Of a DNA stretch of 64,000 bases, positions 52,843-64,000 are shown one piece after another. Below the pieces are notes generated by a model. That model was given only the letters and a program-made list of their open reading frames with translations, did not search any database and was not told the origin of the DNA. Both the position numbers and the translations under genes were made by a program. The stretch comes from Candidatus Poribacteria bacterium (GTDB lineage: Bacteria; Poribacteria; WGA-4E; PCPOR2b): positions 1,088,001 through 1,152,000 of the forward strand of contig OZ242351.1 of NCBI GenBank assembly GCA_965208675.1. The letters run 5' to 3'. The number at the start of each line of letters is the position of its first letter. Position 1 is the stretch's first letter.

Positions 52843-52962
52843 TACGATTTGTGAAACATTTTCGCGTGAAATTCGGTTTAATAGCACAAATGTTCGTTTT
52901 CACGAAATTCGAAGGATGCGTTACATATCATGTCGCACATCTTATGTCACACGGAGGAAAAC

Positions 52963-53541
52963 ATGTTTCCAGTCTCAGAAGCGATTCAATCGCGGCGGAC
53001 TATTTTTCATTTTAAACCTGAACAGGTCGCACGGGATGTACTTGAAGAGGTGCTCACGGCAGGTATCTGGGCGCCTAACCACCGTCTAACCGAGCCGTGG
53101 CGGTTCACCGTCATCGGTGAACAGACCAAGTTGAAGCTGGCAGAGCGGTATCGACAGATTCAGATTGAAAAGGTTTCAAAAAGCGCAGATGTTGACGAAG
53201 CCGCGCTCGCAAACGTAGGCGAGAAAGGGTTCGACAAATTCATGTCCAAACCCACGGTCATAGCCGTTTCGTGTCTTCAGGAAGGGGACGAACAGCGGCA
53301 GCGAGAGGACTATGCGGCGACGTGCTGTGCTTTGTATTGCATTCAGCTCGCCGGATGGGAGCGGGGCATCGGGATGCAGTGGAGTACCGGCCCTATTACG
53401 CTGGAACGGCAAACTTACGAACTTCTAGGTATTGACGCCGAGCGAGAATACATGGTGGGTTTCTGTTATGTCGGCTATCCGGCTGACGTGCCAACCCCCA
53501 AGCGCAAACCGCTGCACGACGTACTGCACTGGACAGTATGA
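52963..53541 (+). CDS. Nitroreductase-family protein (YdjA-like)
   Basis: 'AIQSRRTIFHF', 'WAPNHRLTEPWRF' and 'GIGMQWSTG'. ATG follows GGAGG. Confidence 0.85.
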   Translation: MFPVSEAIQSRRTIFHFKPEQVARDVLEEVLTAGIWAPNHRLTEPWRFTVIGEQTKLKLAERYRQIQIEKVSKSADVDEAALANVGEKGFDKFMSKPTVIAVSCLQEGDEQRQREDYAATCCALYCIQLAGWERGIGMQWSTGPITLERQTYELLGIDAEREYMVGFCYVGYPADVPTPKRKPLHDVLHWTV

Positions 53542-53575
53542 TTGCAACCCGTACCGCTGTTTGACCCATACAGCA

Positions 53576-55048
53576 ATGAACGAATACGATCTCACCATTA
53601 TCGGCGGCGGCAGTGCAGGCTTGGTTTTAGCAGTAGCGAGTGCAAAGCTGGGAAAGAAGACGGCTCTCGTCGAGAAAAATAAACTAGGCGGCGATTGCTT
53701 GTGGACAGGGTGTGTGCCGTCAAAGGCGTTTCTAAAATCCGCCCACCTCGCCCACCACATGAAGATGGCGGAACGTTTCGGGATTACGGTTGAAGGCGTG
53801 GACATCGACTTTCAGCGTGTCATGCAGCATGTCCGGAGCGCCCAGGGGACTATTGAGCGCGAACACGATAATCCGGAGCGATTCCGTGAATTGGGCGTTG
53901 ATGTCATCTTCGGCAGCGGACATTTTGACTCACCGAGGTCTTTCATTGTCGAAGATAGTGAGAAGCACGATACGACTACGCTGACGAGTAAGAAATACGT
54001 AATTTCAACCGGATCCCGCCCTGCTGCGCCGCCAATTCCCGGTGTTGAATCCATCAACTATTTGGACAGCCACAACGTTTGGGAAATAGACAACCTCCCG
54101 CAAACGCTGCTAGTGGCGGGCGCCGGGCCAATCGGTGTCGAATTAGGGCAAGCTTTCTACCGCTTGGGCGCAGAGGTCACAATTGTGCAGCGGAGTGATC
54201 GCATTCTGCCAAGGGAGGAGCACGTCGTCTCCCATCGGATGCTGGAATGCCTTCGAGCAGAAGGCATCTCGATTCTCCTCAACACCAATCTCCACGAAGT
54301 GACAGATGCCGTACCAAATCACGATGAAAATCGCCGCGCTCCGATTAATGGGAATTACAATGTTGTGCTGGATACGCGCGGCGAGAAGCGGGAACTGACA
54401 GTAGATCAGATCTTGATAGCGACAGGCCGAAACCCCAACGTCGAAGGATTGGGGCTTGAACGAATTGGTGTACGGGTAGGGAAACACGGAATTGAAGTCA
54501 ACGAGAAGCTACAAACCTCGGTCAAGAATATTTATGCCGCCGGCGATGTCATCGGACATTACCTGTTTACCCACGTCGCGGCATTCCAAGCGCGGCAGAT
54601 AATTCGCAACATCTTCTTCCCGGGGGCTGCATCAATTGATTACGCTGTAGTCCCTTGGACGACATTCAGCGATCCAGAGGTAGCCCGGTGCGGACTGACG
54701 GAGACGGAAGCGCGGCGGAAATACGGTGATGTCGATGTGTTTACCGTGGATTTTAAAGACGTGGATAGAGCAGTGGCAGAAGGTGAAACAGAGGGATTTA
54801 TCAAGATTGTTGCGACAAAGTGGACCGGCAAAATTCTAGGTGTACACCTGATTGGCCCGCGCGCCGGGGAGATACTCCACGAGTTTGTTTTAGCAATGAA
54901 GGCAGGGATTTCGCTGCGCAAGTTGACTTCGATAATACACGTTTATCCAACCTATTCCAGCATCGTTTGGCAGGTTGCCGGAAAGTGGCTTGCCGAAGGC
55001 ACGCTTGTCAACACGGTTCGGAACTTCTTACGCAACAGCGGAAAATAA
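53576..55048 (+). CDS. FAD-dependent pyridine nucleotide-disulfide oxidoreductase (Lpd/MerA-like family)
   Basis: 'IIGGGSAG', redox disulfide 'GGDCLWTGCVPSK', 'GAGPIGVE', 'YAAGDV' and 'HVYPT'. Confidence 0.85.
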   Translation: MNEYDLTIIGGGSAGLVLAVASAKLGKKTALVEKNKLGGDCLWTGCVPSKAFLKSAHLAHHMKMAERFGITVEGVDIDFQRVMQHVRSAQGTIEREHDNPERFRELGVDVIFGSGHFDSPRSFIVEDSEKHDTTTLTSKKYVISTGSRPAAPPIPGVESINYLDSHNVWEIDNLPQTLLVAGAGPIGVELGQAFYRLGAEVTIVQRSDRILPREEHVVSHRMLECLRAEGISILLNTNLHEVTDAVPNHDENRRAPINGNYNVVLDTRGEKRELTVDQILIATGRNPNVEGLGLERIGVRVGKHGIEVNEKLQTSVKNIYAAGDVIGHYLFTHVAAFQARQIIRNIFFPGAASIDYAVVPWTTFSDPEVARCGLTETEARRKYGDVDVFTVDFKDVDRAVAEGETEGFIKIVATKWTGKILGVHLIGPRAGEILHEFVLAMKAGISLRKLTSIIHVYPTYSSIVWQVAGKWLAEGTLVNTVRNFLRNSGK

Positions 55049-55132: not shown

Positions 55133-56287
55133 CTATTGCTCCTCGTCGTCGTGATTGTGCCGGTGAAACAGCTTATCGCCTAATTTGTCGAAAAACCCGG
55201 TGTGCTCACCACCTACCTGCTCTCCGCGGACTCGGGCAAACTCCGCCAATATCTCCTGTTCTCGATCGGTCAGGCGTGACGGCGTTTCAATTCTCACCGT
55301 TACGATACAATTTCCACGTCCATAGTGATTGTGATGCGGAACGCCCTTTCCGGGAATGCGCAATCGCCCGCCATATTGTGTTCCGGGCGGGATTGTAAGC
55401 GGGACAGGCCCATCAATTGTATCAACTTCAATCTCCGCGCCCAGCGCAGCCTGTGTAAAGGAGACTGTGGCTACTGTAATTAGGTCGTTGTCTTCCCGAA
55501 CGAATCGATCGTGACGAGTTACTTCAATCAAAATGTAGAGATCGCCGGGCGGGCCGCCGTTAACCCCAGCCTCACCTTCACCGCGCAACGAAATTTTGAA
55601 CCCCGTATCCACGCCTTTTGGAATTGTGACTTTAAGTTGCCGAGTCACCCGTACCACGCCTTGCCCTTGGCATGACCTACATGGACGAGAGATGATTTGG
55701 CCTTCACCGCGGCACCGTGAGCAGGTTCGCGACATAGAAAAAAAGCCCTGTGAACGAGTAACTTGACCACGTCCGTGGCAATCCGGGCAGGTTTGCGGGC
55801 TTGAACCGGGCTCGCTTCTTGTCCCATGGCAAGCCTTACACGATTCAAGGCGCGGGACATCAATAGTCGCAGTTTTTCCATTTATAACATCTTCCAGTGA
55901 AATCTGTAAGTTGTATTGCAGGCTGCGCCCCCGTTTCGGAGCTCTCTGCCCACGGGTACTGCCGGATCCAAAAATTTCTCCAAAGTCGCCAAAAATATCG
56001 CCGACGATGTCTTCAAAGTTGCCGAAATCAAAGCCGAATCCGCTAGATCTAATCGAACCTTCTACGCCTGCATGACCGAACTGGTCGTAACGGCTGCGCT
56101 TTTCAGCGTCACCCAAAACCTCGTACGCCTCAGTGGCCTCTTTAAAACTCTCCTCAGCGTTTTTGTCGCCGGGGTTTTTATCCGGATGGAATTTTATTGC
56201 GAGCTTTCGGTACGACTTCTTAATCTCGTCTTGGCTCGCACCTCTGCCTACGCTGAGCACGTCGTAGTAATCTCGTTTTTCTCTCAT
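55133..56287 (-). CDS. dnaJ: Chaperone DnaJ
   Basis: J domain with HPD, G/F-rich region and four CxxCxGxG-type repeats. Confidence 0.97.
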
Positions 56288-56298
56288 GGAACTCTCCT

Positions 56299-58263
56299 CT
56301 ATTGCTTATCAGTATTGCCTGTAGCCTTGTCACTAGAGCGGTCGCCAGCATGCTCGTCAGCTTCTACTTCGATGTCGATGATTTCTTCCTCAGCATCCGC
56401 ATTTTCTGTCTGATTCTCCGTCTCCGTCCCCGCTTCAGCATCACTTTGTCCTTCATCCGCCGCCTCGGCATACATGGCTTCAGCCAACTTGTGGGACGCT
56501 TGCAGCAACGCCTCGGTGTCGGTTTTTATCGCCTCAATATCGTCACCCTTTAAGCTTTCTTTCAGTTTCTGAATCGCCGTTTCTATGGTGTTTCGATCCG
56601 CTTCAGAAACTTTATCGCCATATTCCTGTAATGATTTTTCCGCGCCATAGACCAGCGAATCGGCTTGATTTCTAACTTCAACCGTCTCTTTTCTTTGTTG
56701 ATCTTCCTCAGCATGAGCCTCACCATCCTTAACCATCTGCTCAATCTCAGTATCTGACAGTCCGCTTGAAGACTCAATGCGAATCTTCTGCTCCTTACCC
56801 GTACCTAAATCTTTCGCTGAGACATGCACAATCCCGTTGGCGTCAATATCAAAGGTGACTTCAATCTGGGGCACACCGCGCGGTGCGGGTGGAATACCAA
56901 CCAAATCAAACCGTCCTAATGTCCGGTTATAGACCGCCATTTCACGTTCGCCCTGCAAGACGTGAATATTGACAGCCTCTTGGTTGTCAGCGGCTGTCGA
57001 AAAAATTTGCGTTTTCTTGGTCGGGATGGTGGTATTTCGTTCAATCAGCCGTGTAAAGACCTGTCCGAGTGTCTCAATGCCCAATGACAGGGGAGTTACA
57101 TCAAGCAGTAGAACATCCTTGACGCCTTCATCACCGGATAACACCCCGGCCTGTACTGCCGCGCCGATAGCGACGACTTCGTCAGGATTGACGCCTTTGT
57201 GCGGCGCCTTAGCGAATAGCTGTTCAACCATCTCCTGAACTTTGGGCATACGCGTCTGTCCACCGACGAGCACAATTTCGTCAATCTCCGAGGGACTCAA
57301 TTCAGCGTCTGCCATCGCTTGCCGGCAGGGTTCAATTGTCCGTTCAATCAAGTTCATGGTCAGTTGCTCGAGCTTGGCTCTGGTAAGTGTAATAGTCATA
57401 TGCTTGGGACCGCTGGCGTCCGCTGTAATAAATGGCAGATTTACTTCGGACTGCAGCGCCGTAGACAGTTCGCACTTAGCCTTTTCAGCAGCTTCTTTCA
57501 GACGTTGGAGCGCCATTGGGTCTTTGCGTAAATCGATGCCATTGTCATTCAAGAATTCTTCCGCCAACCAATCGACGATGCATTGATCGAAATCATCGCC
57601 GCCAAGATGCGTGTCTCCATTGGTGCTTTTGACCTCGAAAACGCCATCGCCGATTTCAAGAATTGAGATGTCAAATGTCCCTCCGCCAAGGTCATAGACC
57701 GCGATTTTTTCGTCCGACTTCTTGTCCAGACCGTACACTAGCGAAGCGGCGGTCGGTTCATTGATGATGCGCAACACTTCCAACCCCGCTATGCGTCCGG
57801 CGTCCTTTGTCGCCTGCCGCTGGGCATCATTGAAATAGGCAGGAACAGTAATTACAGCCTGTGAGACGGATTCACCGAGATAGGCTTCGGCAGTCTCTTT
57901 CATCTTTCGCAATGTCATTGCCGATAATTCGAGAGGCGCATATTCTTCGTCCCCGATTCTAATTTTTGCTTCCTGATTGGGACCCGTAACGACTTGATAA
58001 GACACGCGCTCAATTTCTTGTGCTACCTCCTCATAACGCCGCCCCATGAAACGCTTGACAGAAAAGACAGTGTTCTGGGGATTGGTCACAGCTTGCCTTT
58101 TTGCAACCTGCCCCACAATTCGTTCGTCATCTTTTGTAAATGCAACCACAGAGGGTGTTGTACGGCTTCCCTCAGTGTTGGGGATAACCTTCGGTTCACC
58201 TCCTTCCAAAACTGCGACGCACGAGTTTGTGGTACCAAGGTCTATTCCTATCACTTTACTCAT
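56299..58263 (-). CDS. dnaK: Chaperone DnaK
   Basis: '[10 protein letters not shown]', 'TVPAYFND', 'DLGGGTFD' and '[15 protein letters not shown]'. Confidence 0.98.
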
Positions 58264-58981
58264 TCGATTCTTCCTCCTTTTCACCTTCATCGTCCGGTGA
58301 TGTGTTTTCCGTCTGTGGTTTACCCCTAGAAACTGACACCATTGAAGGGCGAATGACCCGGTCGTGCAGCAGATACCCGCGTTGAAACTCCTCGATTACG
58401 GCGTTCTCCTCGACATCTTCCGAGTCAATGTGCATTACCGCTTCGTGAAGATTCGGATCGAACGGCTCACCTTGAGCTTTAATCACCGTTACATCGCGCT
58501 TTTTGAGTAATTCGCCAAGTTGCTTGTGAATCAGTTGAATTCCTTCGTTCAGAGAATCGAAATCTCTCGACTCCTTTGCGGATTCGATGCCTCTCTCTAT
58601 ACTGTCCACAACTAAAATTAAATCTTTGATGACGCCTTCGACCGCATATTTAAAGAACTCTGCTTTCTCACGCTCCGCGCGTTTTTTTGAATTTTCGTAG
58701 TCGGCAATGGTACGAAGCATCCGATCAGACTGCTGTTCAAACTCGGCATTCTTGGCTTTTGCGCTATCTAACTCCTCTTTCATCCGAGCAAATTCTTCGG
58801 GAGAAGGCACTACTTCCGATTCGGATTCCGCTTCGTCCACACATTCACTAGCATCCTCCAAGGCTTCCGACGCAGAGGCTGGCGCTTCGTCCGCTGAATC
58901 CGCCTGAACATCTATTGCGCCGTCCTCCGATGTAGTGCCTTCGGCTTCCGCCTCTATTTGCACGTCTATTGTTTCTGACAT
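58256..58981 (-). CDS. grpE: Nucleotide exchange factor GrpE
   Basis: 'LRTIADYEN', 'FDPNLHEAV' and '[14 protein letters not shown]'. Lies between hrcA and dnaK. Confidence 0.95.
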
Positions 58982-59023
58982 CTAATCACCTCATATCAAT
59001 GTATTCAATCATTAAAGGCTAAT

Positions 59024-60079
59024 CTATAGTGACTTTTGAAGATGTTGACCGATAACTTGCGCCGTAAATTTTACGATTGACACCACACGAGAGTATTCCA
59101 TCCGCGTTGGTCCGATTACGCCTATGGTGCCGAGAAAATGGCCTCGAACGCTAATAGTAGACTGCACGACACTGCACATCTCCATTCCTTCACACCTATT
59201 TTCGCTGCCGATAAGCACCTGAATATCGGGATTCTCTTTCTTTGGCGACAGCAGGTCCGCAACCCGTTCTTTTTGCTCCAAAAAACGAAATAACGGTTCA
59301 ATTTGTTCCACTTCCAAAAATTCAGGCTGACCGAAAAAATTCGAAGTGCCATCGAGATAAACGGGGATTCCCCTATCCAGCGAAAAGGTGTTTCGCGCCA
59401 ACGTTGCGACAGGATCAGACAAATCCCGATCGAAAACCGCAGCCAGATTTGCATGGCTTTGTGAAATTCGTCGTATCTCCCCCAAGGACAATCCTGCTAA
59501 CTTTTCATTAAGAATTCGGCTAATCCGATTGAAATCTGTCTTGGATAAGCTTTCATGGACGGAAACCACCTGATTCTTAACAAGCCCTGAATTCGTAATC
59601 AATACAACTACTACCCGCTGGGTATCAAGCGGAAAGAGTTCCAATCGCCGTAGAATACCGTCATGCAATTGAGGGCTCAAAGCAACTCCGATGTAATGAG
59701 AAATTTGAGATAAAATCTTAGAAGTCTGTTCGATGGTTTCAACGATATCGAGTTCCGATGAGTCGTACCATTGTCGTATGAATCTGCACTCTTCATCTGT
59801 CAACCGTTGAGTCGTCATCATATTGTCGACGTACACGCGATAGCCGAGTTCCGTTGGGATTCGCCCCGCCGAGGTATGAGGTTGCGCCAAGTAGCCATAT
59901 TCTCCGAGCTGCGCCATGGTATTCCGAATAGTTGCCGGGCTCAATCTCATATCATAATACCGCGCAATCGCTCTGGAGCTGACAGGCTTCGCTGTCCGAT
60001 TATAACAAGTGATAATCGCTTCGAGAACCTCGCGATTTCGGGTATTCAGCACAGCGGTTGTCAATGGCGCCACCCCCAA
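59024..60079 (-). CDS. hrcA: Heat-inducible transcription repressor HrcA (start uncertain)
   Basis: 'SPATIRN', 'QPHTSAGRIPT..GYR.YVD' and 'GVIGPTRMEY'. Confidence 0.95.
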   Translation of the reverse strand: MGVAPLTTAVLNTRNREVLEAIITCYNRTAKPVSSRAIARYYDMRLSPATIRNTMAQLGEYGYLAQPHTSAGRIPTELGYRVYVDNMMTTQRLTDEECRFIRQWYDSSELDIVETIEQTSKILSQISHYIGVALSPQLHDGILRRLELFPLDTQRVVVVLITNSGLVKNQVVSVHESLSKTDFNRISRILNEKLAGLSLGEIRRISQSHANLAAVFDRDLSDPVATLARNTFSLDRGIPVYLDGTSNFFGQPEFLEVEQIEPLFRFLEQKERVADLLSPKKENPDIQVLIGSENRCEGMEMCSVVQSTISVRGHFLGTIGVIGPTRMEYSRVVSIVKFTAQVIGQHLQKSL

Positions 60080-60291: not shown

Positions 60292-61080
60292 TCACCCATG
60301 GACTGCGTCTGCAAATCTCTTCATCAACGAAATGGAGTTTTGCTGTTCAATGACGTTTCCTGTCACGATAAAGTCCGCCCCGGCGTTGACCTTTGCAACC
60401 GCCATCTCGGGCGTAGTGATTCCTCCACCCACTATGATAGGGATAGTGACATGTTTGCGAACTGCGCCGATTATTTCGTCGGGAACCGGTATTTTTGCAC
60501 CGCTGCCCGCCTCAAGGTAGATGAACTTCATACCGAGATACTCTGCGGCAAGCGCGTGCGCCCACGCAATGTCCAATTTATCACGCGGGAGCGGGGCGGT
60601 CCCGCTCATAACTTCAACCGAAGTAGCGGTACCACCGTCAATAAGCATATACCCTGTGGATATCGCCTCTATACCACAACGGTGAATCAATGGCGCCGCT
60701 TTAACCTGCTCGCCGATTAGAAAATTGGCATTCCGGCCGCTGATTAGGCTTAGATATAATATGGCATCGGCATGTTGGGATAGGTGCATAGAGTCCCCGG
60801 GGAACACAATGACCGGTAACGACGTCTCATCCCTCAAGGCCTTTGCAAACGGGTTGAGGTCATTTGTCAAGAGGCTGCTCCCCAGCAACAGTGCATCAAC
60901 TCCGGCTTCTTCCGCTTGATGCGCAGCATGAACGCAATCCGCGATGGAATGCCGATCCGGGTCTAAGAGTACGATGTAGCCTGCTCTGCATCTTGACAGG
61001 ACATTCCGTAGGTAATCTAAGGTTGAACCTGATTTCATGGGGTTAGGTGTTTGGAGATATGTTTTTTCAATTCTTCTCAC
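60292..61080 (-). CDS. Geranylgeranylglyceryl phosphate (GGGP) synthase, group II-like (start may be ATG 61038)
   Basis: 'LLDPD', 'FPG', 'SLISGRNANFLIGEQV', 'TGYMLIDGG', 'YLEAGSGA' and 'IVGGGI', all GGGP/HepGP synthase TIM-barrel motifs. Confidence 0.9.
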   Translation of the reverse strand: MRRIEKTYLQTPNPMKSGSTLDYLRNVLSRCRAGYIVLLDPDRHSIADCVHAAHQAEEAGVDALLLGSSLLTNDLNPFAKALRDETSLPVIVFPGDSMHLSQHADAILYLSLISGRNANFLIGEQVKAAPLIHRCGIEAISTGYMLIDGGTATSVEVMSGTAPLPRDKLDIAWAHALAAEYLGMKFIYLEAGSGAKIPVPDEIIGAVRKHVTIPIIVGGGITTPEMAVAKVNAGADFIVTGNVIEQQNSISLMKRFADAVHG

Positions 61081-61116: not shown

Positions 61117-62310
61117 TCAGAGCCATCCAGAGAGTATGAGATGTCTCAATTCCAGTAGTAAGCGTGGTTGGTGCATCAATACCGTCTTAAAAATCTGCGT
61201 CATGTTGACCTTGTCAGGCGGCATCTTTGACACCACCTCTGCACACTTGTCAAAAAGGTCATCACTGAATTTGAGCACACCATCTCGTATTCGGCAGACG
61301 TGCTTGAAATTACTGCCAATTTCCTTATCCCACCGGTTTTGATATTCGCTCAAAATCTTTGCGGACACATCTCCAATCTGGATTGCATTGACCGCAGCCT
61401 CGGCGGCAAATTGTCCCGAATACATTGCGTTTGCGATTCCACCGCCAGAAATAGGATCGCTATGGTGCGCCGCATCGCCAATCAGAGCGATTCCGTCTCC
61501 GACAATCTTGGGCAGGCTATTGCCTACCGGCACACATCCGACGACCTGCGCAAGAATTTTTCCGTGTGGAAATTTTCGTTTGACGAATTCATTTAGATAG
61601 TCGATGGCGAGCTTCCCGCCCTTGCCTGAGATTGTCCCGCCAATTCCGATGCCGACATTCGCAATGTCATCTCCCTTGGGGAAAACCCAGGCATAGCCTC
61701 GCGGCGCAAGCTCCCGCCCAAGGTAAAAATCGCAGAAATCGGGGATAATGTCGATCTTAGAAATTAAGTATTGGGCGCAAATGTCCACGTCCCGTAAATC
61801 GTGTGTGCTATCTATGCCCGCCCATCGAGCTACCTGCGATTCAATTCCGTCGGCGGCGATCACGACCTTCGCCTTGCATGAGTAGTCACGTCCGAAATAA
61901 CGGAATTCCACCCCGTTGACGAAACCGTCATCTGACTTGGAAACGGTAGTCACCCTGGCTTTAACAATTATGTCGGCACCCGCGTCCGCCGCCATTTCCG
62001 CCAAGACACGATCGAAGACCTTGCGCTCTAAAACATAACCGGCGCCCGGAAAATGGATTGTGGCGGGGGTTTCGTTTGGAGAAAAGATTCGAGCACCGTT
62101 AATCTCGCGCGAAACCCACGCCGGATCGGGCTGCACAAACTCGCACAGCGACGCTGTGCCAATCCCCTCCGCTCAACGCACGGGCGCCCCGATTTCCTGA
62201 CGTTTTTCCAACAATAAGACACGCAATCCATTATCTGCGGCAACCTTTGCTGCTATTGCGCCTCCAGGACCGGCACCGACAACAATGACATCATAGTCCG
62301 AGTGAAACAT
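61117..62310 (-). CDS. Geranylgeranyl reductase (digeranylgeranylglycerophospholipid reductase-like), 397 aa if the in-frame TGA at codon 46 is read through (probable Sec)
   Basis: Two track ORFs (62173-62418 and 61117-62136) share one frame. Joined they read [17 protein letters not shown]...[19 protein letters not shown]...ADGIES...[12 protein letters not shown]...[19 protein letters not shown]. The ATG overlaps the ferredoxin stop (TGATG). Confidence 0.85.
62143..62172 (-). promoter_or_regulatory. Candidate bacterial SECIS element
   Basis: The mRNA after UGA reads GCGGAGGGGAUUG-GCACAGC-GUC-GCUGUGC. This is a perfect 7-bp stem starting 14 nt after UGA, with the loop G at +21 followed by U. 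Confidence 0.6.
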
Positions 62311-62528
62311 CAAAAAAGTCCCCGTCCTTCGTATGCCGGGTAATACACCTTGCCGTTTCGTTCTAATGCAAGCACGCCTACCGGGCAACCTTTGATGCAC
62401 CGCGCACAGTCGGTACACTTTGGCTGGTCAATTTTCAGGTAAATATCAACGAGATCAATGATGTTCTCAGGACAGACGGCAACACAAGCCCCGCAATAAC
62501 TACAAAGTTCTTCGTCTATAAGAATCAT
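62310..62528 (-). CDS. 2x[4Fe-4S] ferredoxin
   Basis: [12 protein letters not shown] and [12 protein letters not shown]. Confidence 0.92.
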
Positions 62529-62639: not shown

Positions 62640-63461
62640 TTAATTTATCGCTTGAAGCTGCTGACGGCGGGCGTGTTCATACAGTATTATTCCAGCGGCG
62701 ACCGCAACGTTCAAAGAGGATTGGCCGGGCGCCATAGGAATCTTGACAAGGTTGGTGCAGCGCTGGAGAATTTCTCTCCTGATTCCTTCGTTTTCATTTC
62801 CCACCACAATCGCCACGGGCGTAGTAAGTTCCAGATCATACAGGCTTTTGTTTGCCTTAGCGGTGGCACCGAGAATCTCAAATCCCGCCGAAATCAACTC
62901 GCGGAAATAATCTTCCGGCGACTCGCAAAATGCCAGTGAAATGCGCCCAACAGCCCCTCTCGCCGCTCGAACACAGTTCTTATGGTAGGGGTTTGCACCT
63001 TCTCCGATGAATACGACGCATTCAACTGCCGCCGCTTCAGCCGTGCGCAGCACCATGCCAAGGTTATCCGGATTGGTGATGCTATCAGCGATTAGCAGCA
63101 TACTCTCCGCGGACAAGTGAAAATTTGAAACGTTCCGGTAATTCATCCAAACCGATGCAACCACGGCTGGAACCGGTCTCGTGCTAGTAATGGTCCCCAT
63201 TATTCCGGAGCTAAGCATAAATGGTGCGAAATTTGCTGCAACGGCATTTTTCAGTAATGCAACCCCTAGGTCATTCGCCAACAGGTCGGGAGTGTAGAGG
63301 ATTTTGTCAACCGGTAACTTGTCATGAACTGCACGATTAACGAGTGTAACGCCTTCAACCACAAATCTCGACGCCTTCAACCTCCCGTTTAGAGAGGTGA
63401 GTTTGCGAAAGTCAGTGATGATAGGATGCTTCTTATTGTGTATAACCGCTCGGTTCGCCAC
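62640..63461 (-). CDS. TrmH/SpoU-family RNA methyltransferase
   Basis: 'NPDNLGMVLRTA', 'VVGNENEGI' and 'IPM...SSLNVAVAAGIILYE'. Confidence 0.9.
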   Translation of the reverse strand: MANRAVIHNKKHPIITDFRKLTSLNGRLKASRFVVEGVTLVNRAVHDKLPVDKILYTPDLLANDLGVALLKNAVAANFAPFMLSSGIMGTITSTRPVPAVVASVWMNYRNVSNFHLSAESMLLIADSITNPDNLGMVLRTAEAAAVECVVFIGEGANPYHKNCVRAARGAVGRISLAFCESPEDYFRELISAGFEILGATAKANKSLYDLELTTPVAIVVGNENEGIRREILQRCTNLVKIPMAPGQSSLNVAVAAGIILYEHARRQQLQAIN

Positions 63462-63467
63462 TTATGT

Positions 63468-64000
63468 CTATGGGGAAGATCCAAGGTAGATTGCCCCCAA
63501 TCCAATGAAAATGTCCCACTTCATCCATTTTTGAATCTTTGCGCTGTTGGCTTTAGAATCATTCCGCCAAAGCCGAAAGCCTAAATAGATTAAAACCAAA
63601 TCCACACCCACGATAACGGTTAAAAGATAATGCCACGAGTACCAATTCAGTAAATAAGGAATAGGACTGAACAGTATGACCGCGGTGATGAAGATGAGTG
63701 CAACCAGCACGGCAACTCGTTTTCCCCAAACAACCGGGATTGTACCTGCATCGTTCCGAACATCACCCTCCATATCCTCAATGTCTTTAATTATCTCTCT
63801 TGCGGTGGTAAACAGGAACGCAAATACCGCTGGAACGAACGTACCGTATACAGTCAGCACCGAGGTTCCTCCTACAATGAAAGTTAAACCTGTCAGTACC
63901 CCGACTAGGAGGTTACCGAATAATGGTGTCTGTTTCAAGCCGAACGCGTAAAAGCATAGACAACCGGACACGATGACGGTGATTACCGCTGTGGGCACGT
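63468..64000 (-). CDS. UbiA-family prenyltransferase, DGGGP synthase-like; 5' part lies outside the window
   Basis: 'LKQTPLFGNLLVG', 'REIIKDIEDMEGD' and 'TIPVVWG', with several TM helices. Clustered with the GGGP synthase. Confidence 0.8.
   Translation of the reverse strand, partial: VPTAVITVIVSGCLCFYAFGLKQTPLFGNLLVGVLTGLTFIVGGTSVLTVYGTFVPAVFAFLFTTAREIIKDIEDMEGDVRNDAGTIPVVWGKRVAVLVALIFITAVILFSPIPYLLNWYSWHYLLTVIVGVDLVLIYLGFRLWRNDSKANSAKIQKWMKWDIFIGLGAIYLGSSP

Follow-up and report, generated by a model that had tools for sequence, protein, structure and literature searches.

A probable selenocysteine form of archaeal-type geranylgeranyl reductase in Candidatus Poribacteria

Is the TGA codon inside an otherwise full-length geranylgeranyl reductase (GGR) gene of Candidatus Poribacteria a stop, or is it read as selenocysteine (Sec)? 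The gene lies on the minus strand of a 64,000-nucleotide stretch of contig OZ242351.1, which is referred to here as the window and to which all positions refer unless a genome coordinate is given. The source genome, one contig of 4.89 Mb, is 96.4% complete. All of the gene's closest named relatives come from Candidatus Poribacteria assemblies, and the sequencing runs that contain the stretch are sponge metagenomes. Taken together, the reading frame, the coding constraint on both sides of the TGA, a covarying hairpin just 3' of it and the Sec machinery of the genome make it very probable that this is a real selenoprotein gene, encoding a Sec form of the archaeal-type, flavin adenine dinucleotide (FAD)-dependent GGR.

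The GGR frame runs from an ATG at 62310 to a TGA stop at 61119-61117 and encodes 397 residues. Its sole internal in-frame stop is the TGA at 62175-62173, codon 46. An earlier note, made from the letters of the window alone, had described a full-length reductase interrupted only at this codon, and coordinates and sequence agree with that description. Read through, the product matches Pfam GGR_cat at 5.9e-26, scores 90.6 for PF22578 (cut-off 27) and reaches 236.6 bits against NCBIfam TIGR02032, the geranylgeranyl reductase family (cut-off 158.8). No other protein of the genome passes the TIGR02032 cut-off. A distant paralogue of the family at G000:C1:2689794-2690768 scores 132.8 bits, below the cut-off, in a 429-codon open frame without a stop. 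The equivalog models for digeranylgeranylglycerophospholipid (DGGGPL) reductase are more demanding, and their cut-offs are missed (NF041160, 300.6 of 780; NF041080, 179 of 580; NF041385, 101.8 of 700); the protein is therefore filed as a member of the GGR family and not as a lineage-specific DGGGPL reductase equivalog. The DGGGPL reductase of Thermoplasma acidophilum, 3OZ2, matches colinearly over residues 5-392 (E 3.6e-79). An AlphaFold2 model of the read-through protein, built on 25 sequences, has a pLDDT of 89.7, and its top structure in Foldseek is again 3OZ2 (E 7.3e-44, TM 0.88). The predicted structure shows the full GGR fold.

Codon 46 falls at the active site. In the alignment, U46 shares its column with the SPVRCGEG Cys of 3OZ2 (Cys45 of the Thermoplasma protein) and with the corresponding Cys of the Sulfolobus enzyme. 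That this is the conserved active-site Cys next to the FAD had been stated in the earlier note, and both the alignment to 3OZ2 and published descriptions support it. In passages of PMC10821996 and PMC6309074, this flavin-side Cys is an active-site residue behind the flavin and is essential in the Sulfolobus enzyme; published passages treat its role as unsettled and speculate on electron transfer or modulation of flavin reactivity. The motifs named in those two sources are all in place: GAGPGG at 12-17 (GxGxxG), YAWVFP at 206-211, GGG at 289-291 and the flavin-side Cys position, here U46. The protein thus shares with the T. acidophilum (3OZ2) and Sulfolobus acidocaldarius (PDB 3ATQ/4OPx) enzymes the three-domain FAD-dependent fold, the column of the active-site residue and the sequence motifs, and its gene adjoins a ferredoxin gene, as in several archaea. 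Unlike the archaeal GGRs, it has a bacterial host and a probable Sec in place of the catalytic Cys, and it is 39% identical to 3OZ2.

The TGA is a fixed feature of the gene in this lineage. A search of 61 relatives yields 29 full-length matches from four families, 69-100% identical and with exactly one TGA each, and in all 30 loci fetched from relatives the codon stands between PVR (or PLR) and AEG. Across the phylum, 56 of 176 genomes have a GGR match, 42 of them from the window's order. One of these 42 (in G008) covers residues 195-397 only; the remaining 41 cover codon 46, and every one has TGA (38 full-length, three partial or split). Matches from other orders and classes of the phylum are without a stop. 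When residues 1-120 are compared with 93 loci by tblastn, 21 have TGA, all of this clade, and 72 have Cys (37 TGC, 35 TGT), of which 13 are from Poribacteria of other orders and 59 from Chloroflexota, Ignavibacteriota, LCP-89 or archaea. The in-frame UGA is therefore aligned with the Cys of its homologues over the 93 loci, which is one mark of a selenoprotein gene. Contigs from four other runs, belonging to four studies, span 61900-62450 and show no difference at 62143-62175. A private mutation or read error is ruled out, given that the orthologues of the order all have TGA and more distant homologues have Cys.

Coding constraint extends across the codon. The 40 codons 5' of the TGA contain no stops. 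When 36 distinct Sec-clade sequences are compared there in 630 pairs, 12698 codon differences are synonymous and 2676 non-synonymous, with 2759, 1001 and 14246 changes at the first, second and third codon positions. On these counts the piece upstream of UGA46, which contains the GAGPGG dinucleotide-binding motif, is under strong purifying selection. A UGA conserved with coding constraint on both sides is a second mark of a selenoprotein gene.

The hairpin that follows the codon provides a third line of evidence. It is present as the earlier note described it, just 3' of the UGA: a 5' arm (62159-62153), the loop GUC (62152-62150) and a 3' arm (62149-62143) form a 7-bp stem with a 3-nt loop, separated from the UGA by a spacer of 13 nt and with the loop G 21 nt after the A of the UGA. 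The constraints of the bacterial selenocysteine insertion sequence (bSECIS) model, as quoted in a passage of PMC13188914, accommodate the window's hairpin on every count: an apical loop of 3 nt (model 3-9 nt), an upper stem of 7 bp (4-16 bp), G at loop position 1 (position 1 or 2), 20 nt from UGA to loop (16-37 nt) and a minimum free energy (MFE) of -9.9 kcal/mol (<= -7.5 kcal/mol).

Comparison among relatives singles out this helix. In an alignment of 38 Sec-clade sequences, 36 of them distinct, the stem is paired in 97.2% of cells; the mean of shuffled controls is 88.2%, and sliding the 3' partner by 1-3 columns reduces pairing to 10-62%. Both sides have changed at three of the seven pairs (C-G to U-A; A-U to G-C; C-G to A-U or U-A). 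These double changes fill 24 cells, a figure matched by none of 500 shuffles, and RNAalifold, run unguided, predicts this helix only. Pairing is kept while the encoded amino acids are altered, with Thr to Ala in the 5' arm accompanying Cys to His or Arg in the 3' arm. At degenerate sites, column 39 is invariant and column 30 nearly so, whereas columns 3, 6 and 21, third positions of a comparable kind, are free to vary. All 38 sequences begin the loop with G, even though this base is the third of a codon for A, E, V or P. Among the 72 Cys forms, a mean of 2.15 of the seven equivalent positions are paired and two sequences reach six; among the Sec forms, all 21 reach six or seven. These alignments show covariation in the hairpin and its specificity to the Sec forms. 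The idea that it would be conserved among TGA-bearing homologues thus stands, with compensatory changes in these and no counterpart in the Cys forms.

The genome is equipped to read such a signal. A search for selA, selB, selC and selD, which the earlier note had proposed as a check, finds the full set in the single contig, all above curated cut-offs. A tRNA-Sec with anticodon UCA scores 77.5 bits and is the only one above cut-off in a search of the genome; selA (595.6 bits) and selB (367.5 bits) directly adjoin it. The fourth gene, selD (375.8 bits), has one in-frame TGA. It lies outside the window at G000:C1:4649539-4650462 (locus L018) and is itself a selenoprotein gene, with the codon in the context KCAG-TGA-ASKL; a SECIS-like hairpin with a 6-bp stem and a GGG loop begins 11 nt after the UGA and has the same architecture as the GGR hairpin. 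Within the phylum, selA is present in 163 of 176 genomes. As in other bacterial Sec versions of Cys enzymes with a SECIS internal to the open reading frame (ORF), of which this selD is one, the GGR gene has its UGA at a redox-active Cys position; like bacterial selenoproteins, it has a hairpin just 3' of the UGA with G as the first loop base, spacing and size within the published model, and Cys orthologues. Reassignment of TGA throughout the genome was considered and rejected: the codon closes 404 of the 1217 open frames of at least 400 codons, as well as the GGR and ferredoxin genes, and is thus an ordinary stop.

Several observations weigh against Sec decoding. The case for selenium incorporation at codon 46 is made at the level of sequence. 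Taken alone, the hairpin reaches -7.5 kcal/mol or lower in 24 of 38 sequences and is weaker in the other 14, although a 50-nt stretch reaches that value in all 38. The MFE of the 71 nt after the UGA, folded as a single sequence, is no better than that of shuffles (z -0.39), so the hairpin is not picked out by energy alone. For pairs changed on both sides, the count (three of seven) is not above shuffles (248 of 500), and relatedness among sequences can by itself give scores better than shuffles where no structure exists. Three loci, L042-L044, have a C-C mismatch in the stem. An extended lower SECIS stem, suggested by single-sequence folds, was rejected, as it has no both-side change at any pair and many unpaired cells. 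Sec decoding of UGA46 nevertheless remains very probable. The earlier note had named what would speak decisively against it (a complete genome without Sec machinery, close relatives all with TGC or TGT, a hairpin not conserved among TGA-bearing homologues); each was looked for and none was found.

The neighbouring genes (table 1) suggest what the enzyme does. The order, all on the minus strand, is bamA, skp, lpxD, a polysaccharide deacetylase gene, two UbiA genes (355 and 287 aa, the former just beyond the window), the SpoU methyltransferase gene, ferredoxin, GGR with its UGA codon, geranylgeranylglyceryl phosphate synthase (GGGPS), hrcA, grpE, dnaK and dnaJ. The lipid genes are wedged on one strand between the outer-membrane biogenesis group bamA-skp-lpxD (flanking group at G000:C1:1152346-1158505) and the heat-shock operon hrcA-grpE-dnaK-dnaJ (window 55133-60079, minus strand). 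Farther along the window, on the plus strand at 52930-55048, is a 538-codon frame with pyridine nucleotide-disulphide oxidoreductase domains; it has a TTG start and shares about 110 nt with the nitroreductase ORF before it. Since residue 52 is the first that the domain match covers, this frame probably has its real start farther in.

Table 1. Position, strand and supporting evidence of the features discussed.
Feature	Position	Strand	Evidence
GGR coding sequence, 397 residues, with probable Sec at codon 46	61117..62310	-	translation, Pfam, TIGR02032, 3OZ2, AF2 model
UGA codon 46, probably read as selenocysteine in place of the catalytic Cys	62173..62175	-	translation, homologue comparison
Putative SECIS core hairpin GCACAGC-GUC-GCUGUGC	62143..62159	-	covariation, RNAalifold, bSECIS constraints
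Ferredoxin, 72 residues, 2x[4Fe-4S]	62310..62528	-	Pfam Fer4 families
PcrB-family geranylgeranylglyceryl phosphate synthase (GGGPS)	60292..61080	-	Pfam PcrB 5.5e-42; NF003198, TIGR01769
SpoU-family RNA methyltransferase, between the prenyltransferases and the ferredoxin	62640..63461	-	Pfam SpoU_methylase 1.9e-37
UbiA prenyltransferase of 287 aa in the genome, truncated here where the window ends	63468..64000	-	profile matches

The ferredoxin is probably the electron donor of the reductase. The TGA stop of its gene overlaps the ATG of the GGR gene (ATGA), and in 17 of the 21 Sec loci and in 61 of the 72 Cys loci a ferredoxin motif lies directly upstream of GGR; in four the two are fused. Fer4-GGR fusions of 465-510 aa occur in some Cys-form Poribacteria (L136, L137 and L143, in G062, G061 and G063; P0072-P0121), and they support a functional pairing of the separate, overlapping genes of the window. 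In Methanosarcina, GGR requires the neighbouring ferredoxin in vivo, according to a passage of PMC10821996. On the other side of the reductase, the GGGPS passes both of its models (NF003198, 274.3 bits, cut-off 247; TIGR01769, 206.6 bits, cut-off 161.55); its true start may lie a few codons inside the frame given in table 1.

From this context, the substrate of the Sec enzyme is probably an ether lipid. It is possible, although on balance unlikely, that a genuine Sec-GGR acts instead on something other than a glyceryl ether lipid, such as free geranylgeranyl diphosphate, a polyprenol, the side chain of a quinone or some other isoprenoid. Several observations fit that alternative and weigh against an ether lipid. 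The CDP-archaeol synthase CarS (PF01864) was not found in the 96%-complete genome. The best matches of the 287-aa UbiA protein are models of the digeranylgeranylglyceryl phosphate (DGGGP) synthase type, and the UbiA neighbours stay below the cut-offs of these models, as the reductase does below those of the DGGGPL reductase equivalogs. Matches to PF13685 (Fe-ADH_2) are uninformative on a glycerol 1-phosphate dehydrogenase, as a control also matches in 13 of 14 genomes. GGGPS is found in 144 of the 176 genomes of the phylum, far more than the 56 with GGR, and in some genomes, such as G097, the two are not adjacent. Archaeal GGR paralogues have been proposed to act on other terpenoids (in a passage of PMC10821996). 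Against this stand the position of the GGR gene, flanked by a ferredoxin gene and by a GGGPS gene whose product exceeds its cut-offs, near two UbiA genes; the identity of the closest solved relative, the Thermoplasma DGGGPL reductase; and the standing of the protein as the genome's only family member above the TIGR02032 cut-off. With CarS missing and GGGPS far commoner than GGR, an ether-lipid substrate is the best guess and not an established fact. Prenyl-glyceryl ether synthesis seems widespread in the phylum, with saturation an optional extra. In genus g5, both GGGPS and GGR are missing from 19 of 20 genomes.

With an ether lipid as the probable substrate, the following mechanism can be proposed. 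(i) During translation, SelB carrying Sec-tRNA(Sec) would bind the hairpin (7-bp stem, G in the loop) that begins 13 nt past UGA46. (ii) Sec would be inserted where all other GGRs have the flavin-adjacent catalytic Cys. (iii) The upstream 2x[4Fe-4S] ferredoxin, presumably translationally coupled to GGR, most likely passes electrons to the FAD. (iv) The reductase would then reduce C=C bonds of geranylgeranyl chains. (v) These chains would probably belong to glyceryl ether lipids made by the neighbouring geranylgeranylglyceryl phosphate synthase and UbiA prenyltransferases.

Insertion of a residue other than Sec at step (ii) is very unlikely. Under this explanation the UGA would be read as Cys by a tRNA of the tRNA-ReC type, or by near-cognate suppression, and the hairpin would be a recoding signal. 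Such tRNAs can decode UGA as Cys when a SECIS is given (in a passage of PMC13582414), and the inserted residue cannot be told from sequence alone. The genome, however, has a single tRNA at the tRNA-Sec cut-off. No second tRNA-Sec-like tRNA above cut-off was found in it, and the seven best of 12 sub-threshold matches, run in ARAGORN, are all ordinary Ser, Leu, Trp or Cys tRNAs; the five weakest (31.7-36.1 bits) lie outside this check. Moreover, selA, selB and selD are intact and selD has its own Sec codon. Were Cys still inserted, replacing TGY by TGA would offer no obvious advantage, yet an entire order has the change fixed.

That the TGA is a true stop, leaving a pseudogene or a split gene (a 45-residue peptide and a 339-residue protein from an internal GTG) beside an incidental hairpin, is scarcely credible: gene callers treat TGA as a stop, the listed database proteins of at least 69% identity are 283-346 aa long with 70-86% of the query covered, the fold energy of the single sequence does not reach significance and a few relatives look damaged (G033 by a frameshift, L071/G135 by an extra TAG), but four families, down to 69% identity, have the TGA at one and the same codon, the 40 codons before it show strong purifying selection, contain no other stops and include the GxGxxG motif that GGR needs to bind its FAD cofactor, the read-through protein models as a whole GGR, and the hairpin covaries and is specific to Sec forms. 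Of these apparently damaged Sec-clade copies, L050 (G033:C2:1265194-1266383) is split near residue 113-117, and in L071 the TAG replaces a conserved Trp codon about 20 codons past the Sec codon; both could reflect decay or assembly errors.

The Sec form has a single origin. In a maximum-likelihood tree of 89 GGRs, in which U was entered as C and five loci with short or interrupted frames (L069, L071, L126, L142 and L143) were left out, the 20 Sec forms make up a single clade (SH-aLRT 98) that branches from within Cys-form Poribacteria. The sequence from G077 is its sister (99), followed by f6/f7 (96), f5 and f10. This nesting shows that the switch from Cys to Sec happened once. Most genomes with a Cys-form GGR also have selA, so that the machinery predates the switch, one lineage having recruited it for GGR. 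The Cys-form enzymes of other Poribacteria orders (for example in G077, G067 and G061) are orthologues, 50-68% identical and with the same neighbours; they differ in that codon 46 is TGC or TGT and the hairpin is missing (one to four of seven positions pair), and some are fused to ferredoxin.

The earlier note had foreseen that pipelines would annotate such a gene as split, and the database predictions of Sec forms are indeed N-terminally truncated. Apart from the short proteins mentioned above, one entry of 398 aa at this level of identity covers only 84% of the query, and the full-length entries, at most 68% identical, are Cys forms. The entries are annotated as a generic oxidoreductase, a GGR-family protein or a DGGGPL reductase. 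The listed Sec-clade predictions are without the FAD-binding N-terminus, and metabolic reconstructions of Poribacteria will consequently miss or mis-score GGR. The Sec-GGR thereby flags a systematic annotation error. As far as the searchable literature goes, this selenoprotein is uncatalogued, and an earlier mention is possible. No selenoprotein model is among the best 25 of 92 NCBIfam matches to the protein, and a full-text search, with subscription journals and supplementary tables outside its scope, found no paper that links GGR to selenocysteine or selenoproteins. GGR, TIGR02032, PF01494, PF22578 and Poribacteria are absent from the main text and family table (supplements apart) of a 2026 review of the prokaryotic selenoproteome (PMC13188914), as is any mention of geranyl from the available part of the deep-Sep paper and of Poribacteria from the available parts of the papers found on archaeal lipid genes in bacteria. 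Within a known enzyme family the protein is a Sec variant, made by known bacterial recoding, and it involves no new recoding mechanism. It adds a new enzyme class, an enzyme of isoprenoid-lipid biosynthesis, to the prokaryotic selenoproteome.

General Sec chemistry suggests that Sec gives GGR some catalytic benefit, in rate or in resistance to oxidation. A more specific proposal, speculative and doubtful as a whole, joins three elements. Sec46 would take part directly in the chemistry at the flavin, as a proton or hydride relay or through a transient flavin-selenol adduct; it could speed the reductase or protect it from inactivation by oxidation in sponge tissue and sea water, which are exposed to oxygen; and the whole Poribacteria order would make saturated archaeal-type isoprenoid ether lipids only with selenium available, because this is the sole bona fide GGR in the genome. 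Lipid saturation may in this way be tied to selenium supply. If so, the gene would be a point at which a trace element controls what the membrane is made of, in a bacterium that stands astride the lipid divide. The replacement of Cys by Sec, fixed across an order that has close Cys-form sisters, offers a natural pair for comparing GGR mechanisms, and the presence of archaeal-type GGGPS, UbiA, ferredoxin and GGR genes in Poribacteria, a phylum of sponge symbionts, bears on the lipid divide itself.

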